DNA from: Dimorphilus gyrociliatus | Lineage: Eukaryota > Animalia > Annelida | NCBI GenBank assembly: GCA_904063045.1 | Contig: CAJFCJ010000011.1 | Location: 451,100 to 515,099 of the forward strand | Length of the DNA stretch: 64,000 bases | Direction: 5' to 3' | Part shown: positions 12,250-54,500 of the stretch, piece by piece | Numbering within the stretch: position 1 is the stretch's first letter | Layout: every line of letters begins with the position of its first letter | The notes under the pieces: generated by a model | Told to the model about the DNA's origin: nothing | The model's database searches: none | What the model saw: the letters and a program-made list of their open reading frames with translations, nothing else | Position numbers and translations under genes: made by a program

Positions 12250-12367
12250 CAATTGTTTTTTTGTTCTCAATTTCCTTATCTATACTTATTATAAAAGATT
12301 GCTATTATATTTAAAGGAAGAAGAAACTAGTTTCTTATTTATTAAGATCACATCTAAACAATGTTAT

Positions 12368-22000: not shown

Positions 22001-22604
22001 AGCCGTTTTATCAGTTTTAGATCATAACGAGGAATATACTATTTCTTTTCCTTCTTGCTACGGACGAGCAATCTTAACTACGCCTTGGATGGAATTAGGT
22101 GGAAAAACTCAAATAACTTGTAATACAGGTTATACTGCAAACATAGATTTTCACTCTAAACCGTTCTATGGAGGCAAGAAGCATACTATTACGGCTGATA
22201 TCATGCCACCTGGAGGTCAACCGAAAAGTAAGCCGCTTCTAAGTGTTCAAGGGGAATGGAATGGTGTTATGCAAGCAACTTGGTTGGCCACTAATAAAAC
22301 TGAATTATTTCTTGATACACAAAAAATGAATGTTCATCCTAAAAGTATTAGACCAATTGCAGATCAAGATGTTCACGAATCAAGACAAATGTGGAAATAC
22401 GTAACATATTATCTGGCAAAAAAGGATGTTTTACATGCTACCGAGCATAAATCGAAATTGGAGCAAAAACAAAGAGAAGAAGCTAAAGCTAGAAAAGAAA
22501 CAGGTGCAGAATGGAAGCAGAGAGTCTTTGACTGTATTGGCGATGATTATTTTTATAAAACTCCTTTGAAGGATAGAATTGAAATTCATCATTCCAATAA
22601 TTAG
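19027..22604 (+). CDS. Oxysterol-binding protein-related protein (ORP9/10/11-type): PH domain, FFAT motif, OSBP-related domain; ~11 exons
   Basis: Exon 1 [36 protein letters not shown] (PH domain; GTGAGT donor), further PH exons. FFAT exon with [11 protein letters not shown]. Last exon 21465-22604 contains [11 protein letters not shown] and the OSBP fingerprint [16 protein letters not shown]. Donors GTAAAA, GTAGGT, GTAAGT, GTGTGT, GTATGT in series. Confidence 0.85.
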
Positions 22605-23245
22605 AAAATATTGACAATAACACTTGCTATTATAATGCTAAAATAATATAAAGAACTATAATACGTCGTTATAGTTATGTTAATGATAATTAAAGCAATG
22701 TTTATACAATTTCTGTTTTTGCATTTATACATATATTAAAGAAAATGGAAGCAAGAAAACGGGAAAAGGTGCTTGAAAGTAAATATCAAAAAAAATTAAC
22801 TTTTTTCGAAATAGTTGAAAATGTCTAAAATATAAATTTTTTCAAAAGTCGCTTCTCAATCACAATCCTTATCGTTATCTTAAAATATATTCAATTGGGT
22901 ATTTTTTAAACGGTTTCCTCCCTCATGTTTTAAAAACAAAAGTAAATTTTTTTCATAACAAAATCAAGATAAATCAAATTTATGAAGTATAAAATCATGA
23001 GACTCGTGTCATATTTTTAGTAAAAAGCAGTATAAAATCGAAATAAAAATTTATAAAAATTAAGTAATTGTAAACCAATTGTTTCCTTAAGTATTGGTGG
23101 TCTTTTTTAACTTTAGCTATAAAAATTTTGTGTCCTGAGAAGAGTTCCTTAAACTTTGATATTGAAAGATATTAGAAAATGTCTTAAAACATTTAGAAGG
23201 CTAGTTTCTTCTAGTACTAAAAAAACTACTTCTTGTTTTTCCTTT

Positions 23246-24452
23246 TCAATCGTCTCTTAGTCCCCATTCAGAAACCTTACGATGAGCTGCTACCATGACA
23301 ACCATTGAGGAACCGTTTGATATGAATGATCGCATGACCCCTGGAAGCAAACCTCTATAAAGTCCAAAAAATCCTCCTCTTGAAGAAAATGTTTCTTTTA
23401 ACCGTTTCCAGCTCGATTGACGCTTGCCATAATCTCCTTGGACTTGAGCTTTCATGTATTCTATTGGCCATACCAAAAGCCATGCCATACTAGCTGCTAT
23501 GCCAGAGGTCAAAAACGGCCCTAGCATTGGTCGGCTGAAGTGCTCTGGAAAGTGTCGTCGACCCGAATCGACGAGAATAAAGTAAGTTGTCATAAGACCG
23601 AGAGTTCGGGTCCACGTGACCGAAAAACCCTACATAAAAAATTGTTTTTTAGAAAATTATATGATTTCATTTATAAATTATATAATTTCTCTTGAAAACT
23701 ACTTACGGTATAAATATTTCGCAATTTCCAACCTTGCTGTGTTTGTCCCCTTATCTAAATAATAGATTCATTTTAATGATAATAAAATAATGAAGCCCAT
23801 GGTTCTCACCTTTACGTACTCCAAAGGCGTTTCAATTATTGCACGCGCTGTAGATCCCAGTAAACCAGCCAAGACTACTCTTCTGTCAAAATATTACATC
23901 CTTAGGTTAATAATAGCTTGAATTAAATTATGATTTTCTTACGTTTGCAATCCAAAAGAACCTGGAATTTCTTTTCTAAACACTGGGTTATCCATATAAG
24001 TATACCTGTAGTGACCCAATATTTTTTAATTTTAGACTAAATTTTACATTTATACTAACGCAGCTTCAAAAACGGCAAACTGGGAAGATCTGTATAAGCC
24101 TGATCCCCAAAGCGGAGGTATACATCCTCTAAAATAAGATAGAATTGTTTAAAGGGATTTATAATTATTATGACTACCTGTATAAACCTCGAATGCCTTG
24201 ATTTTTTAGGGTTTTGAGTAAAGTTTCGAACATTCCTCGTTTTTCGAACCCTTTTTGAGCTTGCATTTTGGTTTTTATTGTATCTAATGGATGACCAACG
24301 GCAACGCTAGTTGTTCCGTATAATATTCCGACTGATGGAAAAGGAAAATTCTTGATAGTTATAAAATCAAATTAAAGTTTGTTCATATTTTTACCTCCTA
24401 ATCCGATTGCCCCTTCTTTGAGCCAATGTCCTCTCTTTTCATTATGAGTCAT
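23246..24452 (-). CDS. Mitochondrial carrier family (SLC25) protein, carnitine/acylcarnitine-basic amino acid carrier-like; ~7 exons
   Basis: MTHNEKRGHWLKEGAIGLGG | ...VAVGHPLDTIKTKMQAQK... (Px[DE]xx[KR] carrier signature), ...RRVVLAGLLGSTARAIIETPLEYVK..., terminal exon with GFFGLYRGLLPGVMRSFISNGSSMVVM. Start ATG at 24450-24452, stop at 23246. Confidence 0.75.
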
Positions 24453-25078: not shown

Positions 25079-28000
25079 ATGAGCGAAAAAACTCCTGGAC
25101 ATAGTAAAGCAACTCCGATTAAACCTTCGGACTTAAAAAGGCACGTCATTTTCCTCGACGTGCAAGGATATTCGAATTCTTCCAATTTAGAAAAGTATCT
25201 AACGCAACTTGGTGCCAAAATCGACAAATTTTTGTCAAAAGATGTCACATGCGTCGTTACAAATCGCAAGGAAACGAAATCTGATACTAGCCTCGCCGGC
25301 GAAGATGGAATTTACATGTCAAGATCGCAAATTATGCTCAACAAATCGAAAGAAGTGAATAAAAACGCTAAATCAATGAATCCTGTCGAACGAGCTAAAA
25401 AACTAGGAATTCGAATATGTAAATTATCAGAAATTTTGAAGTTGATAAATTCTACTGGTTTAAACAAACGTTCGTCGTCTTCGGAATCTGTTCGCTTTCA
25501 ACACCTAACCGATTGCTTCATAAAAATCGATGATAGCAACAGCGGATTAAAGCCTGTGTACCAAAAATTGTCTAGTATGCCGACGGTAGAGTTAACACGT
25601 TCCGGATCTCCATTCTTAACAACGGAAGATGAAAAGGAGGAGAAAGGAAGTGATAAAAAATCGGAAGTATCGAAAGAAACTAAGACGTTATCAAAAGATA
25701 GTATTTCGGCCGCTTCTACTAAATCTAAACCAACAAAAAAAGAGAGAAAAGCCTCTAAGAAGAAGGAGAACACTTATTGCGAATGTTGTAACACTGTATT
25801 TACTAATTTAGAGGAGCATTTAAAATCCAATGTTCACAAGGCCTACTTAAATTCGAAATCAAATTTCACTAATTTGGAAGAGACGCTCCGGGAGATACCG
25901 ACTGTGGATAGACTTGTTGAAGAATCTCAGAATAAGCGCGTCAAAACAAAAGGTGCTATGAAATTTATGCAAAATCCTCAAATTCTAGCCGAGCTAAACG
26001 ACGTCAGTGAGAAACCGGAGGAGAAACAGTCGAAAAGAAATAGTATTGTCGTGACGGAAAAGAATGGAGAATTATTTAGCTCTGAGATACGTGCTACCGT
26101 TATAAAATGCTCACCCGCTAAAGAGGGGAAATCTCCGACTCGTGCATTTAAGGAGCATGATAAGCGTTCATCGTCTTGTGAATCCAGAAAGCAGAAGGAA
26201 AGGAAACATCAAAAATCTGATTTGAACTCATCTAGGCAAAAAGAGAAAAGAGAAGATAATAAGGTTAAAGAACGAAAGAAATCCGAGAGATCACAAGGTG
26301 GAAAGGAAAAATCTAGTCAGGAAAGTGAAACTGATAGAAAAAGTAATCAAAAGGCTCAAAACGTTCTTCGTCGGGTAATAGATGACGACTCACTAATTTC
26401 TGCCATTTTAAACGAGAAGGCTTCTGAAAATTGTTCTATATGGCGTAGACCAACTACCAAGGTCAATTACAAATCGCCTGATAATTTTGATTGGCCGGAT
26501 AAGGCAGAGAAGAAGCCTAAGAAAAGTCCTGCGAATGATTCCAAATCTAAGAAGAGGAGTAAGAGCTCAAAGGATACTGATAAGAAAGACAAAATTCAGC
26601 GTTCAACTCCACCTTTCGACAAAACTGCAGATAATTCAAAGTCTTCATCAAAGTCTGGCGGATCTAAGAAAGGCAAAATAGGCACCGATAATGATGATGA
26701 AGTAATTAGTTTTAAAAAGAAATCGAAATCAAAATTGGATACGTCGTCAGAGGTCGAAAAAAGTCCGAAAAAGAAGCCCAAGCCAAAAAGAATTCGAATA
26801 ACTTCTAGTAGCAGTAGTTCCGAGGCAGAAAATAATGAAGAAGAAAAAGTTCCGGAGAAAACTGCTGAAATAAAAATCCCTTTCTGTTGGGATGATTTCA
26901 ACTCCAGTGAAAGCGATGATTCAGACTCAGATTGGTCAGAAGCTGAGAAAAAGAAATCTAAAGCTAAGAAAAAATCAAAACGTCATCCCCCAGCATCAAA
27001 GAAAGATAAAACTGCTCTTATTTCATCACCGCGGAGTAAAAGAGATAATAGTGAGGCTGATGCTTTCCTTCGCCGTAAGGAACTAATGGCTAATCAACCA
27101 AAAAAGAAGTCCAAGGGGAAAAATTTAGCTAATTATGAAAAGTATGTTAAGAAAGTAGAAGAAGAGGAAAAGAATTCAAAGAAGAAAAAAGAACCTGCAA
27201 AAACGGAAGTTTCTCTTCCAACTCCCATGAAAAATTGTAGCTTACAGTTTGACTCTTCTGACGATGAAACACCAAAAATCGACATGAATACTCTATTAAA
27301 CTTCGATAAAGATTCATCTCCATCAAATTCACCTGACTTTTTAGATCAATCTCCCCTTATACCTGATGATGCCTATTTAAATGATGTCTTGAATCATCTG
27401 GGTTCAATTGAAGATAATAATGAAACACCTTCAGAGACACCTATAAGCAGTGTTCCTCCAGCAACGCCATCGTCACAAAGGGTTCCCCAGCAGACTCCAA
27501 ATTACGTACCGTCTACTCCAGCCGAGTGCGATCAGCCTATGTCTGTCGAGACCTTTTGTGCTCCATCTGTCTACGCATCCCAGACTCCTGATTATGCGGC
27601 AACACCTTATTCCGTGCCACCTGGCTCAGTCGCCCAGCCTCCATCGATCCCAATGCAAGATCCAATGACTCCTTGCCCTATTGTCACCAAAAGTCATGTG
27701 ACAAATGCCGACTTTGAGGAGACACTAGAAATGATTGATGACTTTCAGAGAAAGGAAAATGTCACTGCTTTAACAGTTGAACAGCAAGAGATTTTGAATT
27801 CATCTTTGAATTTTTTGAATGAGCCTTTAGATGGGGCAGGTCAAATAGCTAACAATGAACAAGAGTTTCATGATCTGGAATTGGTTCTTGAGGGCCTATC
27901 TCATAGTAACGCTCCCCCAACAACTTCTTTAAGGGAAGAGTCTATCGAAAAAATACTATGTTTAAATGAACAGAAAAAAGAAGTTGTTGAAGAACCAAAA

Positions 28001-30742
28001 CAAACATCTGAAACTTTACATTCTGAATCAACTGATATTTCTGACGACGAGCACGAGTTCAATTTGGCTAGCGAACATAATCGTCGCTCGTCGCAACTTG
28101 CTAGTCCATCTTCATCTTCCATTGACGAACTGAAACAAGATGTAGAGGTAACAGAGAAAACAGAAGTAAATGAATTAAAAGAAGTATCTGAATTAAAGGA
28201 AGTAAATGAGTTAAAGGAATTAAATGAAATTAGGAAAGATAGGGAATTCAAGGACGTTAGTGATATAAAAGAGACAGAGAAAGCGGAAGAAACACCTGTG
28301 AAATTTGAACAAAGTGAAAAAGAACAATCAAATGCACCCGTTATTGATTTGGCAAAAGTTGCTGAGGAAGTCGGAATCAGTGAATCAATTGATGAAGGAC
28401 ATGCTGAAGCTCAAAGGCCCATTGAAACGCCATCATCTGCCTTTCCCATGCAAGAAGTTTTGAACATGGCTCCAATTCATCAACAATCTGCTTTTGAACC
28501 TCCACCACCTCATCCTCCAGTTCAGTTTTTTCCAATGCAACCTGGATCTAACTTACATCCATTACCTCAGAACTTTTTGGCAAATCAATCACTTATACAG
28601 CCGAATTTTAATTACAAGCTGAATTTAATATCAAAACCAACTGATTTGGTTAATCAGATTCAGCGACCTCCGCCGACAGTTACTACTGCTTCAATTCCTA
28701 CTTCTGCTGTAACGCCCCTTAGTGAACAATTACCTGTTGCCCATTCATTATCTCATCATAGTCATCCCCTACCGCACTACGATCTTCGACCCACTTTGCC
28801 TTTAAAGCAAGCACCCTTCGACTCAATGAAGATGGATTTAAACGCTCATATGATGCAGCAATCTACAGTCGTCCAGAATCTTATGAGACAACAAAGTGTT
28901 ACGCCACAGCCACCAAAAAAGGCCGCTGCAGCTGTAGAGAAGAAGCGATTAGCGGCCGAGAAACTGAAAAACGCAGAAGATAACTCTGGGGACAGCAGCA
29001 AGTATTCAACTATAGACGAAGGAATTTGTCAGCAGTTAGACTTAGGTGTTTTTGGCAACGAAAGTATAAACATCCAAAAAGAACCAGAGAGACCCATAAG
29101 TCCTATGAAATTACCTATGGAATCTCCAAAATCAAGAACTCCCCTTGCAGGTCCCATCTACTCGCCAGTCACTCCTGCCGAACCTTCCCCGAAACCTCTC
29201 CCTAAATCCTCCACTGATTCTCCTGCAAACAAATCAGACGAAAAGTTAGAAACACAAATCGAAACACAGAAGAATATTATACAAGAAACAACCAAAGAAA
29301 GGGAAATATCCTCTCCACCTCCCCGTCCACCCTCCCCTCCCCCTCCCGAGCCCTCTATCCCCAAGACCCTCTCAGTCCCCATTGCAGTTCCTAAAACCAT
29401 ACCCTCAGTAGATCCATCACCTTCACAGAATGTTCCTTCAGTAGCTACCTCGACAGTTGTTGCTGAAATTGAGCATAAATTAGACGTAACAAACCCTTCG
29501 AAGAAAGGTGGTTTAGATAGCATTATATCTAAAATTGAAGCCACAAATGTGAAACGTAAAGAAACACCATCAACTCCAAAAGCTGAGTCAAAAATTATCG
29601 CCGATAATAACCTACCGTCTAGTCACAAGCGAAAGGCATCCACACCTCAACGCCGAAAGAGCTGTCACGAAACGCTCTCAGGAAGCCAATTTACATTTCC
29701 TAAATACTTTATTCCTCCTTCGCCAGAGCCACCGCCCAAGCCATCCGCTTCAAGCGAAATATGTAAGCCCTTAAAGAAACGGCATTTACAATTGGCTGAA
29801 TATTTTGAACAAACGGAAACGAAGGAAGATACAGTTGAAAAAGAAAAACCACAAGTGAAAATTGAAAGGCGTCAAACGCGATCATCTACGAGATTGCAAA
29901 CGGAAGCCGTTAAAGAAAAAGAGAAGTCGAAGCCGAAAGTTTCTGAAAAGCCTACATGTAGTAAAAAGAAGGAAAAAGAAGAGAGGCCAAAGCCTCAGTC
30001 TGTTAAAAAAATTCCTCCCAACCTCACTGAATCGTCAAACGATGATGTTCTAGTCAAGGTTACGGTAGCGTCAGCAAATAAACTTAAGATAAAGCGGTTT
30101 GTGAAGAAACCGAAAAACTCTCTTTCAACCAATGAATCCTCCTCACCGACCAAGCCTAATAAGGCGGAACAAAAGGAGGATATTTACGATTTTGATAAGC
30201 AATCCGACGTTATCGAAACAATTGCTGTAAAAGGTCAGCAGACTCCGCAGCCGAATCCGCTACCAATTCCACAATTGAATCCCCAGACGCTTGTCATGCC
30301 TAAACTTAAAATAAAACGTATTAACTCTGATACGCCTGAAGGTAGTACGGATGATTATGAAATTGAGAAAAATGATGGTGAAGTTTCAGAAAAAGTAGAA
30401 AAGATGGCTGGTAAAAGAAAACGCCATAAAGAACATAAAAAGAAGAAAAAACGTCGAAAGTCAGCGGAATCACAGTCTATTTTAGAAACAACTGAGGGTA
30501 TTAAATTGACTATTAAAACTGTAAAGCCGCCAAATGACTTAAAAGAACCTACGGTGGAAAATAACGCCGGAAGTGGTATAAAATTAAAAATTAAGCTGCC
30601 AAAAAACGGGGAACATTCGGGGAGTGAGGGGGTAGAACGAAGATCGAAAAAACATCGTAAACGAAGGCCCTTCGAAGATGACGACGACCAAACGTCCATC
30701 GAGAAGAAGCATAAATTAGATTATATCCGCTCTATACTTTGA
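25079..30742 (+). CDS. DBF4: Dbf4-type zinc finger protein (Dbf4/ASK/Chiffon-like CDC7 activator) with ~1600-aa low-complexity C-terminal extension; single 5664-nt exon
   Basis: N-terminal BRCT-like motif-N (KRHVIFLDVQGYSNSSNLEKYLTQLGAKIDKFLSKDVTCVVTN). Dbf4-type zinc finger YCECCNTVFTNLEEHLKSNVHKAYLNSKSNFTNLEETL matches the zf-DBF consensus YCExC...F..L..H..S..H. The remainder is K/E/S/P-rich with NLS-like KKKKRRK stretches. No motif-M was recognised by eye. Confidence 0.7.
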   Translation: MSEKTPGHSKATPIKPSDLKRHVIFLDVQGYSNSSNLEKYLTQLGAKIDKFLSKDVTCVVTNRKETKSDTSLAGEDGIYMSRSQIMLNKSKEVNKNAKSMNPVERAKKLGIRICKLSEILKLINSTGLNKRSSSSESVRFQHLTDCFIKIDDSNSGLKPVYQKLSSMPTVELTRSGSPFLTTEDEKEEKGSDKKSEVSKETKTLSKDSISAASTKSKPTKKERKASKKKENTYCECCNTVFTNLEEHLKSNVHKAYLNSKSNFTNLEETLREIPTVDRLVEESQNKRVKTKGAMKFMQNPQILAELNDVSEKPEEKQSKRNSIVVTEKNGELFSSEIRATVIKCSPAKEGKSPTRAFKEHDKRSSSCESRKQKERKHQKSDLNSSRQKEKREDNKVKERKKSERSQGGKEKSSQESETDRKSNQKAQNVLRRVIDDDSLISAILNEKASENCSIWRRPTTKVNYKSPDNFDWPDKAEKKPKKSPANDSKSKKRSKSSKDTDKKDKIQRSTPPFDKTADNSKSSSKSGGSKKGKIGTDNDDEVISFKKKSKSKLDTSSEVEKSPKKKPKPKRIRITSSSSSSEAENNEEEKVPEKTAEIKIPFCWDDFNSSESDDSDSDWSEAEKKKSKAKKKSKRHPPASKKDKTALISSPRSKRDNSEADAFLRRKELMANQPKKKSKGKNLANYEKYVKKVEEEEKNSKKKKEPAKTEVSLPTPMKNCSLQFDSSDDETPKIDMNTLLNFDKDSSPSNSPDFLDQSPLIPDDAYLNDVLNHLGSIEDNNETPSETPISSVPPATPSSQRVPQQTPNYVPSTPAECDQPMSVETFCAPSVYASQTPDYAATPYSVPPGSVAQPPSIPMQDPMTPCPIVTKSHVTNADFEETLEMIDDFQRKENVTALTVEQQEILNSSLNFLNEPLDGAGQIANNEQEFHDLELVLEGLSHSNAPPTTSLREESIEKILCLNEQKKEVVEEPKQTSETLHSESTDISDDEHEFNLASEHNRRSSQLASPSSSSIDELKQDVEVTEKTEVNELKEVSELKEVNELKELNEIRKDREFKDVSDIKETEKAEETPVKFEQSEKEQSNAPVIDLAKVAEEVGISESIDEGHAEAQRPIETPSSAFPMQEVLNMAPIHQQSAFEPPPPHPPVQFFPMQPGSNLHPLPQNFLANQSLIQPNFNYKLNLISKPTDLVNQIQRPPPTVTTASIPTSAVTPLSEQLPVAHSLSHHSHPLPHYDLRPTLPLKQAPFDSMKMDLNAHMMQQSTVVQNLMRQQSVTPQPPKKAAAAVEKKRLAAEKLKNAEDNSGDSSKYSTIDEGICQQLDLGVFGNESINIQKEPERPISPMKLPMESPKSRTPLAGPIYSPVTPAEPSPKPLPKSSTDSPANKSDEKLETQIETQKNIIQETTKEREISSPPPRPPSPPPPEPSIPKTLSVPIAVPKTIPSVDPSPSQNVPSVATSTVVAEIEHKLDVTNPSKKGGLDSIISKIEATNVKRKETPSTPKAESKIIADNNLPSSHKRKASTPQRRKSCHETLSGSQFTFPKYFIPPSPEPPPKPSASSEICKPLKKRHLQLAEYFEQTETKEDTVEKEKPQVKIERRQTRSSTRLQTEAVKEKEKSKPKVSEKPTCSKKKEKEERPKPQSVKKIPPNLTESSNDDVLVKVTVASANKLKIKRFVKKPKNSLSTNESSSPTKPNKAEQKEDIYDFDKQSDVIETIAVKGQQTPQPNPLPIPQLNPQTLVMPKLKIKRINSDTPEGSTDDYEIEKNDGEVSEKVEKMAGKRKRHKEHKKKKKRRKSAESQSILETTEGIKLTIKTVKPPNDLKEPTVENNAGSGIKLKIKLPKNGEHSGSEGVERRSKKHRKRRPFEDDDDQTSIEKKHKLDYIRSIL
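28164..28232 (+). repeat. Coding tandem repeat, ~4 x 18 bp (gaagtaaatgaattaaaa variants) encoding VNELKE/VSELKE/VNELKE/LNEIRK
   Basis: Direct reading of the sequence within the DBF4-like ORF. Confidence 0.6.
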
Positions 30743-36073: not shown

Positions 36074-36590
36074 TCAATAATAGAAAAGTAGAAAAATAAT
36101 AAAAACTATGGCTTTGATAAAAAAAGTAAAACAGATTTTGGACGTTTTGTTACATAATGTTTCCGGGCAATAACAAACTTCGGTGTTATTAGTCTGAGTG
36201 CAATGTCCTTTGAGCAATGTATAATTGGTTGGTAGGCAGTCTCTCTTAATAAATATTCCTGAAAAATTAAAGAAAGTGATAATAAATTACTGGAAAGAAA
36301 AGGGAATTCAAATTGCTGTAAGAGTATTGTTATCTTTAAGAATTATCGTAATGTAAACCTCTGTGAGTTTGACCCACTTAAAGAAATAACTTGTAAACCG
36401 ATCGCTAAAATGAATAATGACCTTTCGGTGTCTTTGTTTTTTCCTTTGAACATAGTCCAAATGATTCATGTTGGCAAATATGTTTATCTTTTGAAAAAGT
36501 TTCTGAATTATCTTTGAAAGGTTCCGTGCACCATTCGTCTATTGTAGAATCGCACTTCCAACATCTTCCAGCAGCTGAAAAAGAATTTTG
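36074..36590 (-). CDS. Ly6/uPAR (three-finger, LU-domain) protein, GPI-anchor-type C-terminus; domain exons only, signal-peptide exon not identified
   Basis: Exon AAGRCWKCDSTIDEWCTEPFKDNSETFSKDKHICQHESFGLCSKEKTKTPK, phase-1 donor G|GTCATT, acceptor aatttttcag, exon IFIKRDCLPTNYTLLKGHCTQTNNTEVCYCPETLCNKTSKICFTFFIKAIVFIIFLLFYY*. That gives 10 Cys in the Ly6 order (CxxC...C...C...C / C...C...CxC...CN) plus a hydrophobic tail. Confidence 0.55.
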
Positions 36591-37088
36591 CATCTCAACG
36601 AACTTTTTAGTTTATAACGTAAATTAAGACTTTTTATTTCAGGTTTCCCAAGTCGTAAAAACCGCAATCCATCACAGTATGGTGTTGAGCAACGACACAA
36701 CGTGTAATTATGTCTGAACAGGCAGTTGTCATTCGGAACTACGTCTCCCTCCCGTCTACACCTTCTAGCCAGATAGTAAGTTCCTGTAAATAAAATTGCA
36801 ATTAAATTGACAATATGAAATAATTTCCTTACCACTTTCTTTCAATTCCTCAACAATACATGAAGAATCTGTTTCGCCTTTGCAAATACTCACACCAGCG
36901 GATAGTGAATATTGACTACTATATTTTGAGTGTCTATTAAGGTATTTACACCAGTTTCCTTCACTCGTCGTTTTACACGACAAACACTTTAAATCTGATG
37001 AGATAAGAGAGATAATAAAAAGAGACTGAATTAAAATTTTATACTTTAAATTTGACTGTTTTCTTACTTTTACTCTTAAGTTTTGCAT
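36539..37088 (-). CDS. Ly6/uPAR protein with contiguous signal peptide; 2 exons
   Basis: MQNLRVKVRKQSNLKYKILIQSLFIISLISS (signal) DLKCLSCKTTSEGNWCKYLNRHSKYSSQYSLSAGVSICKGETDSSCIVEELKES, phase-1 GTAAGG donor, 48-bp intron, tttacag, GTYYLARRCRREGDVVPNDNCLFRHNYTLCRCSTPYCDG... The C-terminal tail is only weakly hydrophobic. Confidence 0.5.
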
Positions 37089-37426
37089 CGGATGCCAACT
37101 CAAGACACTTCTCATATAAGCACGAACATTGAATTCCTAAATTACTTATTTCGCAATGATAATTTAGGTAAATACGAGATCTTAAGCAATTCCATCGAGT
37201 GTAAAAGCGTTCTTTATAAAGAAAAAAATAATGAAATAGGAAAAATAGAATGATTTTCTTATAAAACCAATACGCTGAATAATACTTATGCATACTATGT
37301 ACAGAATTCCACATTTGAATTATGCTGCAGGATCCAAACCTTCCCACATCACATATTTGTTGCCTCAGCCTTAGATTTCTTACACCGCATTCTGAATTAT
37401 TTCTTTCAGAGCACTTTGGACATGCT
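37039..37426 (-). CDS. Ly6/uPAR domain exon set lacking its own start codon; begins 45 bp downstream of the stop of the upstream Ly6 gene with a phase-1 acceptor (possible alternative 3' exon set sharing the 37972 signal exon)
   Basis: Acceptor ttaattgtag, then (A)CPKCSERNNSECGVRNLRLRQQICDVGRFGSCS...; putative 84-nt in-frame intron (GTATGC...tttataaag); then RFYTRWNCLRSRIYLNYHCEISNLGIQCSCLYEKCLE... 10 Cys in total. There is no in-frame ATG upstream before a stop. Confidence 0.4.
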
Positions 37427-37467
37427 ACAATTAAAGAAAGCTTACAATAAAGGACCTATTCAATTAA

Positions 37468-37972
37468 TTATTTACTTTCTGCTTTGTTGGTCCTTAATCG
37501 ATTCTTCATATCTGGTAGTAAATTACAATAGTTATAGTCACAAAAGCAGGTGATGACTCCTATTCGACGTACACAATTATTGTTTAAATGATAAAAGTTA
37601 CGACCGCATCCTCTCTCAATCACAATGGCATCTTATTTAGAAACAAAAAATATTTCAAAATTATATTAAAATGTATGCTAATTAAATAAAATTAATTAAT
37701 TACCTCCTTCCATTTTTTCAATAGTGTAACAGCCTTCTTCATATGCTGCTTCACAGGTGAAATTACTTCGCGCTTCAGCCTTTACGTGTTTATTAATGTT
37801 TCTACAAATTTCAGGAAATCCATTACAAAGCCAGCATTTTAGTCCTGAAATTTATTAACATAATGCAACTTTAAACAGTTTTGAAAAACTTTTCTCTCTT
37901 TTTTTTTACCTAAATTAAAAATAAAAAGGGAAAAGTAAACAGTCATAAATAAGTATTCCTCTCTTCTAGCCA
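37468..37972 (-). CDS. Ly6/uPAR protein, complete: signal-peptide exon + 2 domain exons
   Basis: MARREEYLFMTVYFSLFIFNL | (phase 1, GTAAAA ... aatttcag) GLKCWLCNGFPEICRNINKHVKAEARSNFTCEAAYEEGCYTIEKMEG | (GTAATT ... tctaaataag) DAIVIERGCGRNFYHLNNNCVRRIGVITCFCDYNYCNLLPDMKNRLRTNKAESK*. 10 Cys, ending CFCDYNYCN, the canonical CCxxxxCN. Confidence 0.65.
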
Positions 37973-39059
37973 TTGTTTTCTTGTTAACTTTTAAAGTCCG
38001 AGCAGTACCGAATGTGAAAACATGAAAAACATGGAGAAGCCTATTGCTATAGGCCAAAATATTACAGTTTTATATCAAATTACACAATCGGAAATTATAT
38101 ATACAATAGGGAAACCAAAAGAAGAGAAAGAAGACAAAATTCAAGAGAAACGTTCTTTACGAAAGAGTTTTTAATTCTGGAAATATTTTTAAATGATAAG
38201 GTACAAACAGATGCAATTGTTAAGTGAAATGTATGAATGCTGCTTCCAGAGATGATTAAATTTAAAAAAAATGTAGAAATTATAGACAAATAGTTTCTTT
38301 TCAACAAAGTAAATTATCACAGCGCTAAAAAAGATAATTAAAAAACTAGGATATAAATCATAATAATTGAATTCAAGGAAATAAGATATAAAGATATCTA
38401 TATTTCTAAAAGTAAGAAACATAGAAAAGTAAATAGAAAACCAAACAATTAACAAGAAAATAACCATACACTATCGGTTTTTTTATATTAAAACAATATT
38501 TAAAAAAAAATTTTCCTTTTTAATTATAAGAAAAAACTAGCTTTAAACTATTTTTACACATTGTATTAAATAGAAATACAATTGTAATTATATCTTGTTT
38601 GAGAATTGAAAATTTCATAAATAATAGAATACTTCATACTGACAAGCACTCTTGTAAATTTAAAATAATTGATCATTGATACATAAAACTATAGATTTTA
38701 TTTATTTAGCTGTACATACGAATTTTATACTTTCTTTAGTAATACATACCATTTATGTACACAGTATATAGATTGTATATTTTTGTTATTCAATTCTCCT
38801 TAAGAGAAAATAGACACTTTTAATAATTTTATATAAGATGATTATTTAATAGAATGGTTTTGTTTCCCTCCTTTTCATATCATTACGGTAATTTGATCCT
38901 AAACTCCAGATTCCTTTCGCTTTTTATATACATTGAAATATATTATCACGCTAATTTTAATAAAGTATGACGCAGATTGAAAATTTAGTAATGAACAAAG
39001 CTTTTTCTATAAAGTATATAATCATTTCATTTCGTCATATGAAACAATCCGATTGTAAG

Positions 39060-39067
39060 TATAAATA
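39060..39067 (+). promoter_or_regulatory. Putative TATA box (GTATAAATA) ~36 bp upstream of the GPCR-2 ATG
   Basis: Same 9-mer as upstream of GPCR-1. Confidence 0.35.
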
Positions 39068-39102
39068 TTTTTCTCCAGCTTTAATGAACTTTATACATAC
39101 CT

Positions 39103-40225
39103 ATGTATACTTTGAACAGAGATAAAATAATAATGGAGAAAGTTTCCAATAGTAGTGAAACTATCTTTCCCCTATATAGTAACATTATAGCTGATGTTTA
39201 TGGTATAGCCGTCATTTTTTGCTTGGGTTCTTTGGGAAATTTCCTTACAATTATAATTCTCCTTCACAAAAGAATATTTCATTTGTCAACAAATATTTTC
39301 ATCTTTAATTTGGCTCTAGCTGATGGTTTTATATGCTTAATTAATGTTTTTCATACTATAGCTTACTATTATTCTGCCATTCATATTCAAATTTGCACCG
39401 TTTATACTGTTGTATTTATATCTTGTGCAAATATTTCACAGTATAGTTTAGCTTTAATTGCAATAAATAGATATTTTTTTGTATTAAAAACCCAAGAAAA
39501 GTATGAAAGTTTATTTTCCTGTAAGCTTTGCTGGGTGTGGTGTATTTCTTTATGGTTTCTGTCTTGGTGCATTGGTCTTTCAACTCTATTTCTCGCATAT
39601 TTTAATTTTGATCGTAAGTCTCATTCTTGTAAAGTGAAAAATTATTCCGAAATGAAAACATTTCTTCTTATTAATTCTGTCTGTTGTTTCGTAGTAAATG
39701 TTCTATTAATAGGTATTTTCTATTTAAAAATATATAATGGGATAAGAAAATCTAGAACCAGAGTTATGTCTCTTGCAAATACACTACAAATCGTATCCTC
39801 ATTAACTTCTCAGAAAGGTAAATTAGTAAATAGATTTTTATAAATGATCTATATTTAATAAGGAAGTATACTGCAGCTATAAATCAGATGAAAAGTAATG
39901 ACAGTATAACTATGAAGAAGAGAAGATCAGCGATAAAAGAGATTAATCAATTTTTTTTAATATGGTTTTTATATGTATTGTTTATATTACCAATTATAAT
40001 TGATGTTATACTGAGACGGACTAGTACTGTACCCTACATTTACGATCGGTTTGATCTTTTTCATTAAACTATTGACTGCTGTTCAAGTTATTATTTTGCA
40101 GTGTAAGCTATAACTTACTTCGAACGAACTCTACCGTGAATATAATGATATATGTCTGGAATAATAAACAGCTTAGAAAAATCATGAAAGAGCTTTTTTT
40201 TAATAAGGTATGCAAAGCTATTTAA
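39103..40225 (+). CDS. Orphan rhodopsin-like GPCR, paralog 2; 3 exons (39103-39817, 39877-40048, 40102-40225)
   Basis: IIADVYGIAVIFCLGSLGNFLTIIILLH / NLALADGF / INRY / ...LIWFLYVLFILPIIIDVILRRTSTVPYIYDR / RVSYNLLRTNSTVNIMIYVW aligns along its length with GPCR-1 (4789). Intron phases are identical (1, 2), donors G|GTAAAT and CG|GTTTGA, acceptors ctgcag and ttttgcag. Confidence 0.8.
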
Positions 40226-40277
40226 AATCTATACTGTTTGTTTATTCAAATATATAATTTGTTTTCATATAAATAAA

Positions 40278-40799
40278 TCAAATAAGAAATTTATTTAATA
40301 ATAAATAGATTAAGCTTGAATTCAAAATCCAAAATAGATCTAACTTTCCCTGACACTTTGCTCCGGCACCGTTGCCAGGTATTGAATCGTGATCCAGTCT
40401 ATATTCCTCTTTTATTCTTGTATAATTTGCCACCCTTTCAAGAAATCCCTCTTTTCCATTACAAAAATTACCAAGACAATAACAATGGTGAGAAGAGCCA
40501 TCATTGAAACAGTTCTCCGTAACAAAAGTGGTGTCAGTATAACAAAGTCTATTAATTACCGCTGTTCCTAAGGAATATTTATAAATAAGCAAATTTTTCA
40601 TCCATTATGTACTTAAAAAATTAATTACCATTTCTAGTATTATTCTGATTAACAGTAGTAAGACAGGATCCTGAGGATATATCCACTTGGCACGTGTAAT
40701 TGGCCATCAAAACATCACTCGGTTCAATTTGCAAGTCTTTACACCAGCTTTGATCCTTAGAATTGCATTTTAAGCATTGTATTGCTGAAATTATGCCTT
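40278..40799 (-). CDS. Ly6/uPAR protein domain exons with GPI-signal-like tail; signal exon possibly shared with the gene at 40816-41467
   Basis: Acceptor atttttttacag, then (E)GIISAIQCLKCNSKDQSWCKDLQIEPSDVLMANYTCQVDISSGSCLTTVNQNNTRNG, then acceptor ccttag, then GTAVINRLCYTDTTFVTENCFNDGSSHHCYCLGNFCNGKEGF...AKCQGKLDLFWILNSSLIYLLLNKFLI*. Confidence 0.5.
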
Positions 40800-40815
40800 C
40801 TGTAAAAAAATAATG

Positions 40816-41467
40816 TTAAATATATTTCATATATATACTGTTTAATTGTCTTTTTCGATGTCTAGCCAGCGGAAGTAGATCACAATAATTGGAAGAGCAA
40901 ATACATGATTTGAAAGAATTTTGAATTACACAATTGTCTTTTAAATCTAAGATTTGTAAAGATTCGCAAGTTCTTCTAACATGATAGTAACCTGGTAGAA
41001 CGATAAAATATATCATAAAGTTTAATGAGAAATCTTTCTAGGTAATATACTTACTGTAAGTCGCAATTTCATACGAAACGCATTGTTCATAAGTATCAGC
41101 TTCACAAGTACTCTCTGCCAGTTCCGTTTCATTTAATTTTCTATCTAAATTACTACACCAACTGTTCCTGGAGTGAGATTGACAACTCCAACATTTTAGA
41201 GCTGAATTAGCACAAAAGATTTCATATTTTAAGATGATTATATATCAAACTAATAATATTTGCATTCGAAAGGGTAAGGAAACAAAGTACCTAAATATTA
41301 ATGAGGTTGTCTGTTATATAAATAATAACAAATATATATATATATAATATACTGCATACATATTACAGTATATACATGTAAAAAAATCCTACATTAAACG
41401 ATAATTATATCCTACCTGATGTAACACTACAAGTAATTGAGAAAATGTATAACGTGAGAATCTTCAT
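40816..41467 (-). CDS. Ly6/uPAR protein, complete: signal exon + 2 domain exons
   Basis: MKILTLYIFSITCSVTS | (phase-1 GTAGG donor) (A)LKCWSCQSHSRNSWCSNLDRKLNETELAESTCEADTYEQCVSYEIATY | (GTAAGT) ...YYHVRRTCESLQILDLKDNCVIQNSFKSCICSSNYCDLLPLARHRKRQLNSIYMKYI*. Confidence 0.6.
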
Positions 41468-42085
41468 GATTAACAAACTAGATTTAAACTAAAGTTTAGT
41501 AATTCATCTCTGGTGGAAGAAAAATGATCTGGAAGAATGCAACCAACCTGCGAACTTTTTATGGATAGGCTAAAATCAAAGGAAGAGCTTGATATACCAA
41601 AAAAAATCTACATTTTTCAGTATTCACATATGCGGTATAACAAGCTAAAGAAAACAAAATTGTTATGCAAAAAAAAATATTAGAAAGCTAGCTCCCTCTC
41701 TTTCTCTTTATTCCTTCCTAACAGAGAGATAAAAATCGGTTTTCGTCTTTGTTTCCTTAATATTTAGAAAACAAATAGAACACCACTTTATAAAATATTG
41801 GCCTAAGTTTTTACCATATGATCAACCATTCTCTTCCAGATTTAACATCGTCTCTCAATAGAATCATACAGAAAAATGAACTTTGGAAAGAAAAATTGAA
41901 TGTCTTCATTCTGTGTGTTAATAGAGACAATAACACGGCTATTATGCTTTATTACGTGTTTTAATTATTTCAGTATTATAGGCAAAAATTAATAGGCTCA
42001 TAAGAATAAATATAGCTATCAATACTTTTCAGATACCTGAAGAAGTAATCATAAAAAAGGAATTTGCGCTTTTTATTTATCGATT

Positions 42086-42430
42086 CTAGAAAGAAATGAC
42101 TAAAAAATTGAGGTAAAGAAAGGTAGAGAAATTATTTTGCAGGTGAAATTCAATCTTAATAATAAAGGTGTTTAATTGATACTGATAAGTTTGTTTATTG
42201 TGTCTCTTTCTATGGTTTTTCCCTACTTTACTATAAGATAAAAATACATTTCTTTCGTTTTCCTCATCTAATCTATTACAAGTGTTAGATGAACAGTAAC
42301 AAGTAGCAGTATTCTTTTCAGTTTCATAGAATTTTTTGGCAGTAGGTGAAGGATCCTTGATTGAGGTCATATGAACAATTACTTACCATTTCCCGAGCAC
42401 ATGTAGACGAATAAAGATAAGGGCAATAAA
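42086..42430 (-). CDS. Ly6/uPAR-like protein fragment (C-terminal domain exon with CYCSSNTCN motif and hydrophobic tail; upstream Cys-rich exon CKQFYCPYLYSSTCAREM + GTAAGT)
   Basis: ...TATCYCSSNTCNRLDEENERNVFLSYSKV...STFLYLNFLVISF*. Exon linkage is not fully resolved. Confidence 0.4.
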
Positions 42431-44018
42431 ATTGCTTACATCTTTATATTTTAAAGCAACAAAGGAAAATAAGTACTTTATATAGAGCAATTACAATATA
42501 TTTTAAGCAATATTTCATCGTAAAACAAAAGGGTATACTTCTTTCTAGATCGACACAAATAAGTTGATACAAACTTTCTTATATATTATTTATTGAAGTT
42601 TGAAAACAACGAAACAACCAATTAGAATGTGTTTTAACTCAATTAAAAAATACTTTATTAAAAAATTTATTCTACTTTTAAAAGAATTCATAAAGCAATT
42701 AGGAAAATATTTCCAAGCCCTGCAAAGTGAATGGTTTTTTTTTTAAAAAAAAATAAAGTTGAAGATATATAGTATATTATAAATATGTTACTCTTAAGTT
42801 CATATCTTAGATGTCTATTCAGCATTACATTTATAAACATTATATTTTTATTTTTCTAAAAATGAGTTTCCATGTAAAAAATACATTACTGATTAATAGA
42901 AGAATATTATTATACATATAGCTTACAATATCTTTATAAAAAGTTTTGAACTTGTTTTTCAGACTAATTAGCACGTAAGGCGTTTCCATTTCATGCTTAT
43001 AACATTTCTTTCTATTACAATAAAACTTTGCCGCACTTCAATAAATATATGCTAGCTATATCTTTTCTTAATCTTAGATTTGTAGACTGAACCAGTTTCT
43101 ATCCGTATAATTTGCGTTAAGCGTATCAAGATATTGATTAATGACAATAGAAAGTACTTTCCTATTGTTTTTCTCTTACCTTCGACATATATTGCTAATT
43201 TTTAAATGAACAATCATAATCTCATTGAAGATATCAAACTATCCTTGGAATATTTACTAATTATATAACGCCATCTATTGCAATATATACTAATAGATAT
43301 ATTAGTATATAAATTTATACAATATACTGTAAATTAGTATATTTAATCAGAGTATGCTTTAATTTGGAACAAATTCAGTATATTTTTTAATGTTTTGACA
43401 AAACTAAAGACAAAGCATTTAAACTTTATTACTGATAGTGAAAGCTTGTTAAAACTAACATACACTTGATGAAAAGAGAAGAATTTCATAGTACAGTAAA
43501 TACACTAAGTGAATCCTAACTCTTCAAGAAGACTTTGGGGTTCTTCGCCTTCCTGTTATCAATAAAAAACAAAGCAATAGTAAAAGGAAATTAACAATAT
43601 ATATATATATATATAATACATTAAGTTTGTTTATTTGTACAGAGTAATATACATTATACATTCAATGTATATTAGTATCATTTGCTGTTATACTATAATT
43701 TCTGTGCGTATGAATCTTGAGGACAAACATGCTTTATATTACAAAACGATTGTAAATCTTTTCTTATCGTGGTAGCAGTTAGTTACATAGTAATGAATAT
43801 GTTAAAAGGGAATTAGTTTACATAACCAAAGATTAAAGAGATTAGTTTTCTTTCCCTTTTTTTTTAAACCTGAATTATAAATCCCAAAATATCCGGTTGA
43901 TACTTCTCTCTGTTGACATAGTTTTAATAAAATACTGTAAATATTTAGATACTCTTTTTCCCTAGATTTTGCAATGCCGAGTGATTTCCTATATATTTCC
44001 TACTCAATAAATAAAGAT

Positions 44019-46121: not shown

Positions 46122-46841
46122 ATGGGAGGCTGTTCATCTATTTCCTGTATAGATAGTCTTCTATTTCAGAATAACAATTCACTGACACCTATGTCGCCAA
46201 ATAGACTGGCTAGAGCAAGAAGAAGAGCATCTCAAGCTCCTCCTTCGTTTTCATCTCTGCCTCTCAATGAGAGAGAGGTTATAAAGATGGCTCGGACGTG
46301 GAGAACAATTCAGAGGCAAATGACTAGAGCAGGAAAGCTCATGTTCATACGAATGTTTGAATCGAGTGATGCTGTTCGTTCAACTTTCGAGCAGTTTCGA
46401 TCTGTGGATCAAGTTTCTGATTTGTGGACTAGCAAATCATTAGAGAATCATGCCATGATTGTTATGAATGCCTTAGATGAGGCATTTAGTAATTTGGAGG
46501 ACGAAGAATATGTTGTCGATTTATTACTTATTAATGGTCTATCTCATAGAAGATTCGTTAGTATGACGGCAGCTGTATTTTGGGTAAGTAAAAAGATAAT
46601 CCCATTCAACGTTCTTTCAAGTCTCTCTAATTAGAATTACTCTTTTCTCGTAAAAAAAAAGTCAGTTGAAGAACCTTTTCTATTAGCGATAAAAGAGATT
46701 CTCGAAGATAAGTATACCGCATCTACCGAAGCCTTATTTCGCAAGACAATAAAGTGGGTGCTTGAGATATTAATATTTGGTTTTGAAAGTTCAAATGCTG
46801 AAAGATTTGTCAATAAAAAGGATGAAATTAACTTCATGTAA
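46122..46841 (+). CDS. Globin with N-terminal acylation motif (globin X / nematode-type membrane-tethered globin-like); 2 exons (46122-46583, 46662-46841)
   Basis: MGGCSS... (Gly2 myristoylation consensus MGxxxS plus adjacent Cys), ~45-aa extension, then globin fold: REVIKMARTWRTIQRQMTRAGKLMFIRMFE (A/B helices), ENHAMIVMNALDEAF (distal His), GLSHRRF (proximal His). GTAAGT donor after ...AVFW. Exon 2 SVEEPFLLAIKEILEDKYTASTEALFRKTIKWVLEILIFGF (G/H helices). Confidence 0.65.
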
Positions 46842-51592: not shown

Positions 51593-54500
51593 ATGTTTAA
51601 AAAATTAAAGCAAAAAGTGCAGGAAGGAGTGAATACTGGTAGTCAGATTCTCCAACAAAGTAAAAATAACATTTTAAACAGGGTAAGAGCTTTATCGTCT
51701 GCTAATTCAACTTGTTTCGCTCAGTTCTAAAAGTATCAATAATTTTCTCTAGGATATTTCTGCCAGTCAGGAAAAGGTTTGTATTAAGTTTAAAATATTT
51801 TCTCATACATAATGGAAGATTATAGATCTCTGAAAGACAATATGATCAAGTTTCAAAAGAACAAAGTAGCACCCATGGCCCTTTAATCAACATAGGGGTA
51901 TGTTGCTGAATACTTTTAAAGTAATAATTGACAAATCTATAATTTTAGGATACATCTCAGCATTCTGTAGATTCTAACCCAGCAATACCCCAGCAAAATC
52001 ATCCTGATGGGGATCTTGTTGAATTGAATGTAAGAGCTAAGTGCTTTCCTTGGAATAAACTAATTATATATCCTACAGGAACCACCAGCAACTTTGGATT
52101 TGAGTGGACAGAATTATTTTGCAGATAGTGATGTGAGTTTTCTAACGACTGACGAAAAAAAGGCGCAAATACCTCGTTCAAGAACCGATTCAATTTCGTC
52201 GCAAGCTTCTGACCAATTTTTCGGTATTCCTATTTCTCCGTTCACCCATACACACATGCCTTTAGCCAGTGATGTTGAAAGCACCGCAAGTGAGGTTAGT
52301 GCTATTTTTAGCTTCAGATCAATTTAATTAATATTTGAACGTTTTTATTTGCCATATGTGAAATATTAAAATTATCTTTGTTGTTTAATTTAATATTATT
52401 TTTTTGTCTAAAATTTCAGATTGATGATTCTTCTGTGAAGAGTTTCGGAACGTTAAGTAAAGAACAAATATTGAATAATTATGCGAAAATTGTAAAGAGA
52501 TGCGAAAAATATAAAATAAGATTTAAACGAGTAAATTTCTGTTTTTGACTATTTAAAATTGAGGTGATTAATTGTAATTTTTTGCTATAGCTAGCTGAAG
52601 CTTATCGAGAAACAGAAAAGGAACGGGAAAAATTACAAAATGTACTCACTGCTTCACAAGATAAGGCAATCAGAAAAATATCAGAATTTAAAGAACAAGC
52701 AAAACTAGACGCTCTAGCCAAACGAGATATACAACAAAATTATGAACTACTGTTAGAAGAAAAAGATGAATATATCTTTGTTTTAAAAACTCAGATTGGA
52801 CTATTAAAGGAAGGACAATCAATTCCTGATGATTTGCAAGCTAAAACTGAGTCAGTTGAGAAGTCGACGGCAGTGAAAGAAGAAAAAGCTAAATCTCTTA
52901 TGAGTGGGTCAGAACAAGCAGCTGATGTATCCTTGAAAGAATATTCTGATAGAGTGAAAAAATTGGAGAATTTATTGGGAAAATGTAAAGAAACCATACA
53001 GCAAAAACGAGTGGAATGCGCTCGGTTAAATCAAGATAAAGAAGATATTGAAAATAAACTACGAACTCTTCAAGAAGAAAATGAACAATTAAGAGTTTGT
53101 GAAGTTGACACGAAGAAAAAAGTTCAAAAGCAGTTATTAGATGCTCGTCAGATAATGGAAGAATTGGAAAGTAGTAAGGCAATGGCAGTTGCTGAAGTAA
53201 AAGCCGAATTACACTCTCAACTACAGATCACTGATGAAGAATTATCGAAAACAAGGGAAACTTTTAAAATTGCACAAAAAGAAATTGAGAATTTACAGGA
53301 AGCGAACTCCAAATTAAAGCAGTCATTCACAGAACAGTTGGAAAAAGCAAAATCTATAATATCTCGACTAAAGAATGAAAAAGCTCAGTTGAAGGAGGAT
53401 TTGCAGACAAGACTTGAGACATCTGAACACTCTTTAGACGAAGAAAAAGAAACTGTAGTACATGAACTGAAAAGAGCGAAAACACAAGCTTTGGAAGTGA
53501 TGCAAAGTGAACATGATGAACAAATAAAAATAATGAAAGATTGCCATAATAAGGAACTGAATGAATTAAGAGAAAAATTGACTGAAGAATTTAATGAAAG
53601 AGATATATTAAATCAAAAGCAGTTGGAGGAAGCAAAGCTTCAAATTGAAAAAGCCATTCAAAACAAACAGGATGAACTTAGTAAATTGTTAATTGAGAAG
53701 GACGAAGAATGTAGAAGAATGTTACTTGAAAAAAATGATGAAATGAGGCTAGCACTTGAAGAGAGGGAATTGCGAAAAATGGCTGTTGTATCCAAACAAG
53801 ATGAAGAAAACGATGTTCTGAGTGCAAAAATAGCTCATTTAGAAACGACTAACTTACAGCTAGAACAAGATATGAATGATTTGAAAGAAAAGCATAAACT
53901 CGAAATTGAAAAATTTGTTTTCAAAATTGAAGAAAATGCTACACGAAAAGCGGAAGATTTATTAGAAGTAAACAGAAAGCATGAAGAGGAACTAGAAAAT
54001 TCTAAGAGGTCGATCGAAGAGAGTTTTGAACTGAAATTTATGGAAATGGGACAGAGTAGAAAAGATGAAATAGACACTTTAGTGGCAAAATACGAAGAAT
54101 TACTCAGAAATAATTCATCTGAATTGGATAATGACTATGGAAAGCAGATGGAGATACTGAAAACTCAAAATAATCAAGCACTTGGCGAACTGCAATCATC
54201 TCTCAATCAATCTTCACGAAGAGTGAATGAATTAATCAGTGAAAACGAAGAACTAAAGGAGAAAATAAAAACAAATGAGCATGACTTAGAAGAGACAGTG
54301 GAAAAACATTCAAGTGTCTTATCCAGTTTGAACGAAAAACTTCGAAGTAGCTCGGAAGATTATGAAAAGTTAATGAAAGAATATAATAATTTACAATCTC
54401 AGCACAAAGAAAAATTAGATGAATTAAATTCCAATATACAAGAGCATGTTACGACTAATGAAAAGTTAAGAAACACTGTTTCAGAGTTGGAAAATAATTG

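Follow-up and report, generated by a model that had tools for sequence, protein, structure and literature searches.

Six Quiver-type Ly6/uPAR domains in the annelid Dimorphilus gyrociliatus probably belong to two multi-domain surface-protein genes

The locus described here is a 64,000-nt window of Dimorphilus gyrociliatus contig CAJFCJ010000011.1, and all positions below refer to that window. The window is AT-rich (GC 25-42%), its genes are dense, and its introns are short and of the GT-AG type. On the minus strand it contains six units with the features of Ly6/uPAR (LU) domains, which probably splice into two genes for multi-domain surface proteins, designated g1 (36074-37973; four LU domains, 9 exons, 428 aa) and g2 (40278-41467; two LU domains, 5 exons, 270 aa). 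A further minus-strand element (42086-42443) is probably a decayed LU relic or pseudogene. The units are named A to G: D, C, B and A follow one another in g1, F and E follow one another in g2, and G stands apart. A rhodopsin-family G-protein-coupled receptor (GPCR) gene (39103-40225, plus strand) lies between g1 and g2, and an alpha-type nicotinic acetylcholine receptor (nAChR) subunit gene occupies 62125-64000 on the plus strand and continues past the end of the window. An original prediction for this stretch had described a tandem cluster of at least seven separate Ly6/uPAR genes at almost exactly the spans of g1 and g2.

Six-frame reading of 35.5-43.5 kb, together with base-level inspection, identifies six minus-strand units of two exons each, with ten cysteines in LU spacing. 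Specifically, the first half of each unit has the layout C-x2-C...C...C...C, and the second half has the layout C...C...CxCxxxxC. Alignment of the six domains, which are 85-97 aa in size compared with 60-90 residues for the ancestral LU pattern, gives ten invariant cysteine columns, with all 60 scaffold cysteines intact. Over the whole 64 kb, a regular expression for the first half matches the six units in the cluster and two isolated chance sites elsewhere. A search for the terminal motif CxCx(3-7)C[NDSG] finds five of the six units and unit G, and misses unit C because that domain terminates in CSCLYEKCL. The residue after the final cysteine is N or D in five domains and L in unit C. Thus the CxCxxxxCN/D ending that had been ascribed to every unit holds for five of the six and for unit G, and fails for unit C.

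The identity of the domains was examined with profiles. In a leave-one-out analysis, a profile was built from five domains and the sixth was scored against 2334 six-frame segments of the remaining window. The omitted domain always ranks first, with scores of 38.8-52.4 bits for five domains and 13.5 bits for unit C, and the 2334 background segments reach at most 9 bits. Against the Pfam profile PF17064 QVR ('Quiver family u-PAR/Ly-6-like domain'; gathering cutoff 27.3 bits), the whole g2 protein (32.0 bits) and unit A (27.8-28.6 bits) score above the cutoff, while units E (22.4 bits), F (22.0 bits), D (21.3 bits) and B (9.4 bits) and the whole g1 protein (25.1 bits) score below it. In five of the six domains the alignment extends across the whole QVR profile. 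Pfam profiles therefore recognize those five, two entries being above the cutoff, and give no match for unit C or unit G. A sequence-profile search of the PDB returned only chance antibody and lectin matches, and fold searches with predicted models returned no significant fold match. Taken together, the six units are genuine LU domains of the Quiver type, and the assignment to the Ly6/uPAR family in the original prediction was right. Its count of seven 10-cysteine LU units stands for six; the seventh, at 42086-42430, has a whole-domain score within the range of shuffled sequences.

Exons were joined on the minus strand at canonical GT..AG sites only. The result is two uninterrupted open reading frames (ORFs), in which 12 of 12 introns are GT..AG and of phase 1. 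Read from high to low coordinates, g1 consists of a signal-peptide exon, domains D-C-B-A and a C-terminal tail, with 8 introns of 49-163 nt. Exon 1 (37973-37910) encodes the predicted signal peptide MARREEYLFMTVYFSLFIFNL/G, the hydrophobic core of which has a Kyte-Doolittle mean of 2.0; the sequence then continues with LKCW, and the mature g1 protein is predicted to begin at LKCWLC. LU domain 1 (unit D, 37476-37844; exons 37844-37704 and 37631-37476) has ten cysteines, the terminus CFCDYNYCN and a leave-one-out score of 47.0 bits. LU domain 2 (unit C, 37068-37424; exons 37424-37296 and 37211-37068) also has ten cysteines; with E 0.012 in the leave-one-out analysis it is the most divergent domain, and its cysteine scaffold still aligns with the others. 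LU domain 3 (unit B, 36631-36994; exons 36994-36833 and 36783-36631) has ten cysteines, the terminus CRCSTPYCD and a leave-one-out score of 45.0 bits. LU domain 4 (unit A, 36074-36574; exons 36574-36422 and 36258-36074) is followed by the C-terminal tail KTSKICFTFFIKAIVFIIFLLFYY (hydropathy 3.0), and the protein ends in CNKTSKICFTFFIKAIVFIIFLLFYY.

Using the same procedure, g2 is read as the predicted signal peptide MKILTLYIFSITCSVTS/A, again followed by LKCW, then domains F-E, a linker and a tail, with 4 introns of 39-214 nt. Exon 1 (41467-41416) precedes LU domain 1 (unit F, 40839-41201; exons 41201-41055 and 40991-40839), which has the terminus CICSSNYCD and a leave-one-out score of 52.4 bits. 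LU domain 2 (unit E, 40278-40799; exons 40799-40629 and 40567-40278) has the terminus CYCLGNFCN and a leave-one-out score of 38.8 bits. Unit E is followed by a 45-aa linker, a possible glycosylphosphatidylinositol (GPI) attachment (omega) region, GNGAGA, and the hydrophobic tail LFWILNSSLIYLLLNKFLI (hydropathy 1.8). If the alternative acceptor at 40784 replaces that at 40799, the protein is 265 aa instead of 270 aa.

The two models agree with what is known of LU genes, in which a signal-peptide exon is followed by two exons per domain, with phase-1 flanking introns and an internal intron at the tip of loop 2 (PMC6600238). Both g1 and g2 follow this plan, with phase 1 in every intron. In an AlphaFold model of domain A, the internal intron falls in the turn (residues 49-51) between the two best-predicted strands (E41-48 and E51-58; pLDDT, the predicted local distance difference test, 75-79), and this hairpin-turn position agrees with the placement at the tip of loop 2 in PMC6600238. 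Base composition follows the exon boundaries, with GC of 0.355 in exons and 0.23 in introns of g1, and 0.339 and 0.21, respectively, in g2. Hydropathy shows a single hydrophobic stretch at either end of each encoded protein. An AATAAA after a stop codon occurs only at the end of each model (11 nt past the final stop in g1), the few others lying in intron 1 or in coding sequence. We consider it probable that the six units splice into two multi-domain surface-protein genes, of four and two LU domains, which together with one relic replace the seven genes proposed before.

The proteins encoded by g1 and g2 would enter the secretory pathway, where the signal peptide would be cut just before LKCW and the C-terminal tail would be exchanged for a GPI anchor. 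On the outer leaflet they would then act as protein-binding accessory molecules, by analogy with other members of the family. The ancestral pattern of ten cysteines (five disulfides) is intact in each of the six domains. Among characterised proteins of this type, some take part in the assembly of junctions and others bind ion channels or receptors: QVR/SSS binds Shaker and nAChRs, and Lynx1 binds nAChRs. For QVR/SSS and Lynx-type LU proteins, both binding and modulation of nAChRs are documented (PMC4735452, PMC6502960). A toxin or venom role was considered and rejected on account of the membrane-anchor tails, the QVR match and the housekeeping-gene surroundings.

Several points weigh against this picture of two spliced genes for GPI-anchored proteins. 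We infer the exon linkage in g1 and g2 from sequence logic alone. Two donors in g1 are weak, namely GTCTTA of intron 7 and GTCATT of intron 8. Upstream of unit B there is an in-frame Met followed by the hydrophobic stretch ILIQSLFIISLISS, a possible internal start; this stretch overlaps the coding sequence of unit C and the pyrimidine tract of the intron. Anchoring of the products by GPI is predicted from hydropathy, and the g1 tail has an unusually short spacer and could be a membrane-spanning anchor instead of a GPI signal. Finally, word-indexed, phmmer and JGI contig searches retrieved no multi-domain ortholog of g1.

Compatible with the two-gene structure, and not opposed to it, is an account in which splicing is regulated: skipping of exon pairs would give GPI-anchored isoforms with one to four LU domains, and intron retention would give anchorless secreted forms. 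Because the introns are of phase 1 throughout, any combination of exon pairs stays in frame, and retention of an inter-domain intron (introns 3, 5 and 7 of g1, intron 3 of g2) leads to a stop within 3-31 codons. In addition, g2 has two usable acceptors, 40799 and 40784, and the weak donors of g1 introns 7 and 8 could favour regulated splicing. However, LU exons in general have symmetric phases, which are therefore no sign of alternative splicing. This account, drawn solely from the DNA, seems unlikely. A more specific form of it seems quite unlikely: g1 and g2 would be splicing cassettes in which one signal-peptide exon and one anchor exon are combined with varying subsets of divergent LU domains, soluble forms would arise by intron retention, and the multi-LU state would be independent of the uPAR type. 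If that were true, a modest set of three-finger ligands, some on the surface and some soluble, would come from one locus.

In the arrangement that the original prediction had assumed, seven (or six) tandem single-LU genes would each have their own start and stop, and mostly their own GPI signal. Each unit does meet a stop if its downstream intron stays unspliced, tandem clusters of single-domain LU genes are common (PMC6600238), and the Met and hydrophobic stretch upstream of unit B resemble a start. However, an in-frame Met is missing from units C and E, and the Met of unit A leads into no hydrophobic signal; a five-disulfide domain lacking a signal peptide is not expected to fold. Units D, C, B and F have hydrophilic read-through tails, and hydrophobic C-termini are confined by hydropathy to units A and E and the relic G, so the statement that most units carry GPI-signal-like tails does not hold, nor does the notion that each unit has its own start, signal peptide, stop and 3' end. 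The gaps between units are only 39-73 nt long and could not accommodate a terminator and a promoter together with a signal-peptide exon; GT..AG sites of matching phase border these gaps, and none of the internal stops has a polyadenylation signal after it. Independent single-LU genes are thus very unlikely, and the count of at least seven was wrong, as phase-1 GT..AG introns probably join six units into two genes.

An ORF at 36765-37115 on the minus strand begins at an ATG in the second exon of unit C, in another frame, and crosses the pyrimidine tract, which is read there as the hydrophobic stretch upstream of unit B, into unit B. Gene finders could be misled by this ORF into giving unit B a signal peptide of its own.

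The best and sole consistent profile match of g1 and g2 is the Drosophila Quiver/Sleepless type of Ly6 protein (PF17064; boudin, coiled, crooked and Bero). Shared with the fly proteins are the ten cysteines, the CxCxxxxCN end, the predicted signal peptide, the predicted C-terminal hydrophobic signal of the GPI type, the two exons per domain, the phase-1 introns and the clustering of the genes. Unlike most of the fly proteins, which have a single LU domain, g1 and g2 carry four and two LU domains in tandem. The host is an annelid and not an insect, and most of the g1 and g2 domains score individually under the Pfam cutoff. A few fly proteins carry 2-44 LU domains (PMC6600238).

The plan predicted for g1 and g2, with one signal peptide, tandem LU domains and one GPI signal, is also found in the mammalian multi-LU proteins of 19q13 (uPAR/PLAUR, C4.4A/LYPD3, Haldisin/LYPD5, TEX101 and CD177). 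These end in CCxxxxCN-type motifs, not in CxCxxxxCN. Their genes keep the generic exon pair for each added domain, and the 7-8 disulfide is missing from the N-terminal LU domain of every one of them (PMC6600238). In contrast, the N-terminal domains of g1 (D) and g2 (F) keep ten of ten cysteines. The presence of all ten cysteines in every domain argues for an independent multi-domain origin, and neither the PDB profile search nor phmmer detected a sequence relationship to the mammalian multi-LU proteins. The multi-domain state of g1 and g2 is therefore probably independent of that of the mammalian proteins. The Lynx1/SLURP prototoxins and snake three-finger toxins belong to the same superfamily, but they are single-domain proteins, many of them secreted, unlike g1 and g2; these proteins are the basis of the idea of nAChR modulation (PMC6502960, PMC6616073). 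Overall, g1 and g2 would be further cases of a known architecture, distinguished by ten cysteines in every domain. They would add two multi-domain Quiver-type Ly6 proteins from an annelid, a member of a group where the family is barely described. They would also illustrate an annotation trap in compact AT-rich genomes, where tandem LU exon pairs are easily counted as genes and inflate apparent lineage-specific expansions.

Pairwise identity among the six domains is 19-31% overall and 9-23% outside the cysteines, lower than the 25-35% over non-cysteine positions given before. Relatedness was expressed as z against shuffles in which the cysteine positions were fixed. Similarity extends past the cysteine scaffold for F-D (z about 10), F-B (about 8), D-B (about 6) and A-E (about 5), and this test finds no relation of unit C to the other domains past the scaffold. 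Across the two genes, the N-terminal domains are most closely related to each other and the anchor-proximal domains to each other. This pairing fits duplication of a multi-domain gene, and we infer that a gene already containing several domains was duplicated, with subsequent gain or loss of domains. Searches for direct and tandem repeats at the DNA level across the cluster found nothing relevant. Given this and the deep divergence of the domains, there is no sign of recent duplication, and the description of the cluster as a fast-evolving, lineage-specific expansion is unsupported.

When spliced g1 served as the query of a word-indexed homolog search, no sequence reached E <= 1e-3. An exhaustive phmmer search of 1.84 billion representatives, run with a g1 query in which four junction residues were swapped for read-through residues (T to S, K to E, N to D, T to S), found one match, P0123. 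This protein of 153 aa, encoded on a 1-kb JGI contig, has a single LU domain along with a signal peptide and a tail, scores 36 bits with QVR and is 41% identical to unit A. In a library of that size about 41 bits are needed for significance, so single diverged LU domains are undetectable and the lack of matches does not show lineage specificity. A scan of JGI metagenome contigs with g1 found no relative. No close multi-domain ortholog is on record, and these searches retrieved no ortholog by which to date the duplications.

The GPCR gene between g1 and g2 has exons 39103-39825, 39888-40048 and 40102-40225 and encodes 335 aa. The protein has NRY instead of DRY and matches the entire Pfam 7tm_1 profile (positions 1-260 of 260) with 77.8 bits, which bears out an opposite-strand GPCR between the two sub-clusters. 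Homologs outside the window are weak (33% identity to a melatonin-receptor-like protein of amphioxus), and the label 'orphan' is fair. The gene is divergent from g1, across a 1.1-kb interval, and convergent with g2. The GPCR stop (40223-40225) and the g2 stop (40278-40280) are 52 nt apart. The AATAAA of g2 is at 40246-40241, and the nearest GPCR AATAAA sequences are at 40272 and 40300, at or inside the last coding exon of g2. As each polyadenylation signal lies inside the other transcript, the GPCR and g2 mRNAs must overlap in antisense at their 3' ends. A GPCR paralog is present at 4789-5478 on the plus strand, 34 kb away; its first exon and that at 39103-39825 (plus strand) are 39% identical over 230 aa, and both paralogs have NRY for DRY and are weakly similar to recorded receptors. 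Scans with the terminal motif and with half-domain profiles found no LU neighbour of the paralog at 4789.

The nAChR gene encodes a Cys-loop, YYSCC in loop C and transmembrane segments 1-3 (TM1-TM3), all of which can be read directly. Exons between 62261 and 63705 are 71% identical to a protein of Paralvinella palmiformis and 81-84% identical to unnamed partial fragments; the next-best named matches, at <=54%, are alpha-7/9/10-like subunits of nemertean, brachiopod, mollusc and other invertebrates. YYSCC and these matches confirm the alpha-type subunit that had been placed at 62125. A contig of a related species (L001; ENA ERZ21781341 ctg59192l, record 43531-64112) covers 10 kb on either side of its nAChR gene, with an exon 81% identical to that in the window. 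Its GC is 40%, compared with about 32% in the window, and ORFs for reverse transcriptase and integrase crowd both sides of the receptor exon. This retroelement load indicates a genome much less compact than that from which the window comes. On this one contig, no LU motif is found within 10 kb of the nAChR gene.

The positions of these two receptor genes had suggested that the LU proteins modulate, as dedicated and co-adapted partners, either the GPCR beside them, whose gene would have a 1.1-kb divergent promoter region in common with g1, or the nAChR alpha subunit encoded 20 kb away. The action of QVR/SSS and Lynx-type proteins on nAChRs (PMC4735452, PMC6502960) favours such a coupling, as do the divergent arrangement of g1 and the GPCR and the 3' overlap of the GPCR with g2. 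However, the cluster and the nAChR gene are about 20 kb apart, with no fewer than three unrelated genes between them: one for a globin, an ORF of 314 aa and a coiled-coil ORF of 1721 aa. The GPCR paralog lacks an LU neighbour, and L001 lacks an LU motif within 10 kb of its receptor gene. Animal genomes contain many LU and many nAChR genes, so a distance of 20 kb would be unremarkable, and most characterised LU proteins have unlinked targets. With proximity as the link, coupling to either receptor is highly improbable, and the proposed co-adaptation is unsupported. Most simply, the closeness of the cluster to a GPCR gene, and its distance of about 20 kb to an nAChR gene, reflect ordinary gene order in a compact genome. 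Gene order here gives no evidence tying prototoxin-like proteins to receptor targets, and no new mechanism is opened.

Unit G differs from the six domains of g1 and g2. It retains TATCYCSSNTCN and a hydrophobic tail, with the motif CYCSSNTCN, and has only 6-8 cysteines. With the second-half profile, its C-terminal half scores 17.2 bits, compared with 8.0 bits for the next-best segment; its first half scores 4.4 bits, which is noise, and the whole domain scores 7.4-10.7 bits, compared with up to 8.6 bits for shuffles. Its parts can be joined only through a frameshift of 1 nt in an A-run at about 42345 or through an intron of 31 nt, and an in-frame stop parts a signal-peptide-like ORF (MKYCLKYIVIALYKVLIFLCCFKI, 42518-42447) from the cysteine-rich stretch. 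Unit G is probably a decayed LU relic, either a dead single-LU gene or a pseudogene, although its disruption is possibly a homopolymer assembly error. That all of the units are remnants without function, whether pseudogenes or cysteine-rich ORFs that arose by chance in AT-rich DNA, as the decayed look of unit G and the lack of orthologs in very large protein sets might suggest, is scarcely credible, given the 60 intact scaffold cysteines, the open 9-exon and 5-exon reading frames, the canonical splice sites throughout, the higher GC of exons than of introns and the leave-one-out scores far over the window background.

Further recognisable genes, all unrelated to the LU cluster, lie at 10896-13720, 21465-23593 and 46122-46634. 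Among them are a Fuseless-family membrane protein in two ORF pieces, an Inturned/CPLANE-type longin protein (minus strand), an oxysterol-binding protein (238 bits), a mitochondrial carrier exon (minus strand) and a globin-domain protein. A one-exon ORF of 1887 aa at 25079-30742 (plus strand) has a BRCT-like N-terminal region, a DBF-type zinc finger (40 bits with Pfam zf-DBF) and then a long stretch of low complexity rich in S, K, E and P; it is the GC-richest part of the window and may encode a Dbf4/ZDBF-like protein. The ORF of 1721 aa occupies 52834-57999 (plus strand) as a single frame, is rich in E, K and L with the look of a coiled coil, and has no significant Pfam domain. Its purine skew is strong, with an AT skew of up to 0.35 and a GC skew of 0.2.

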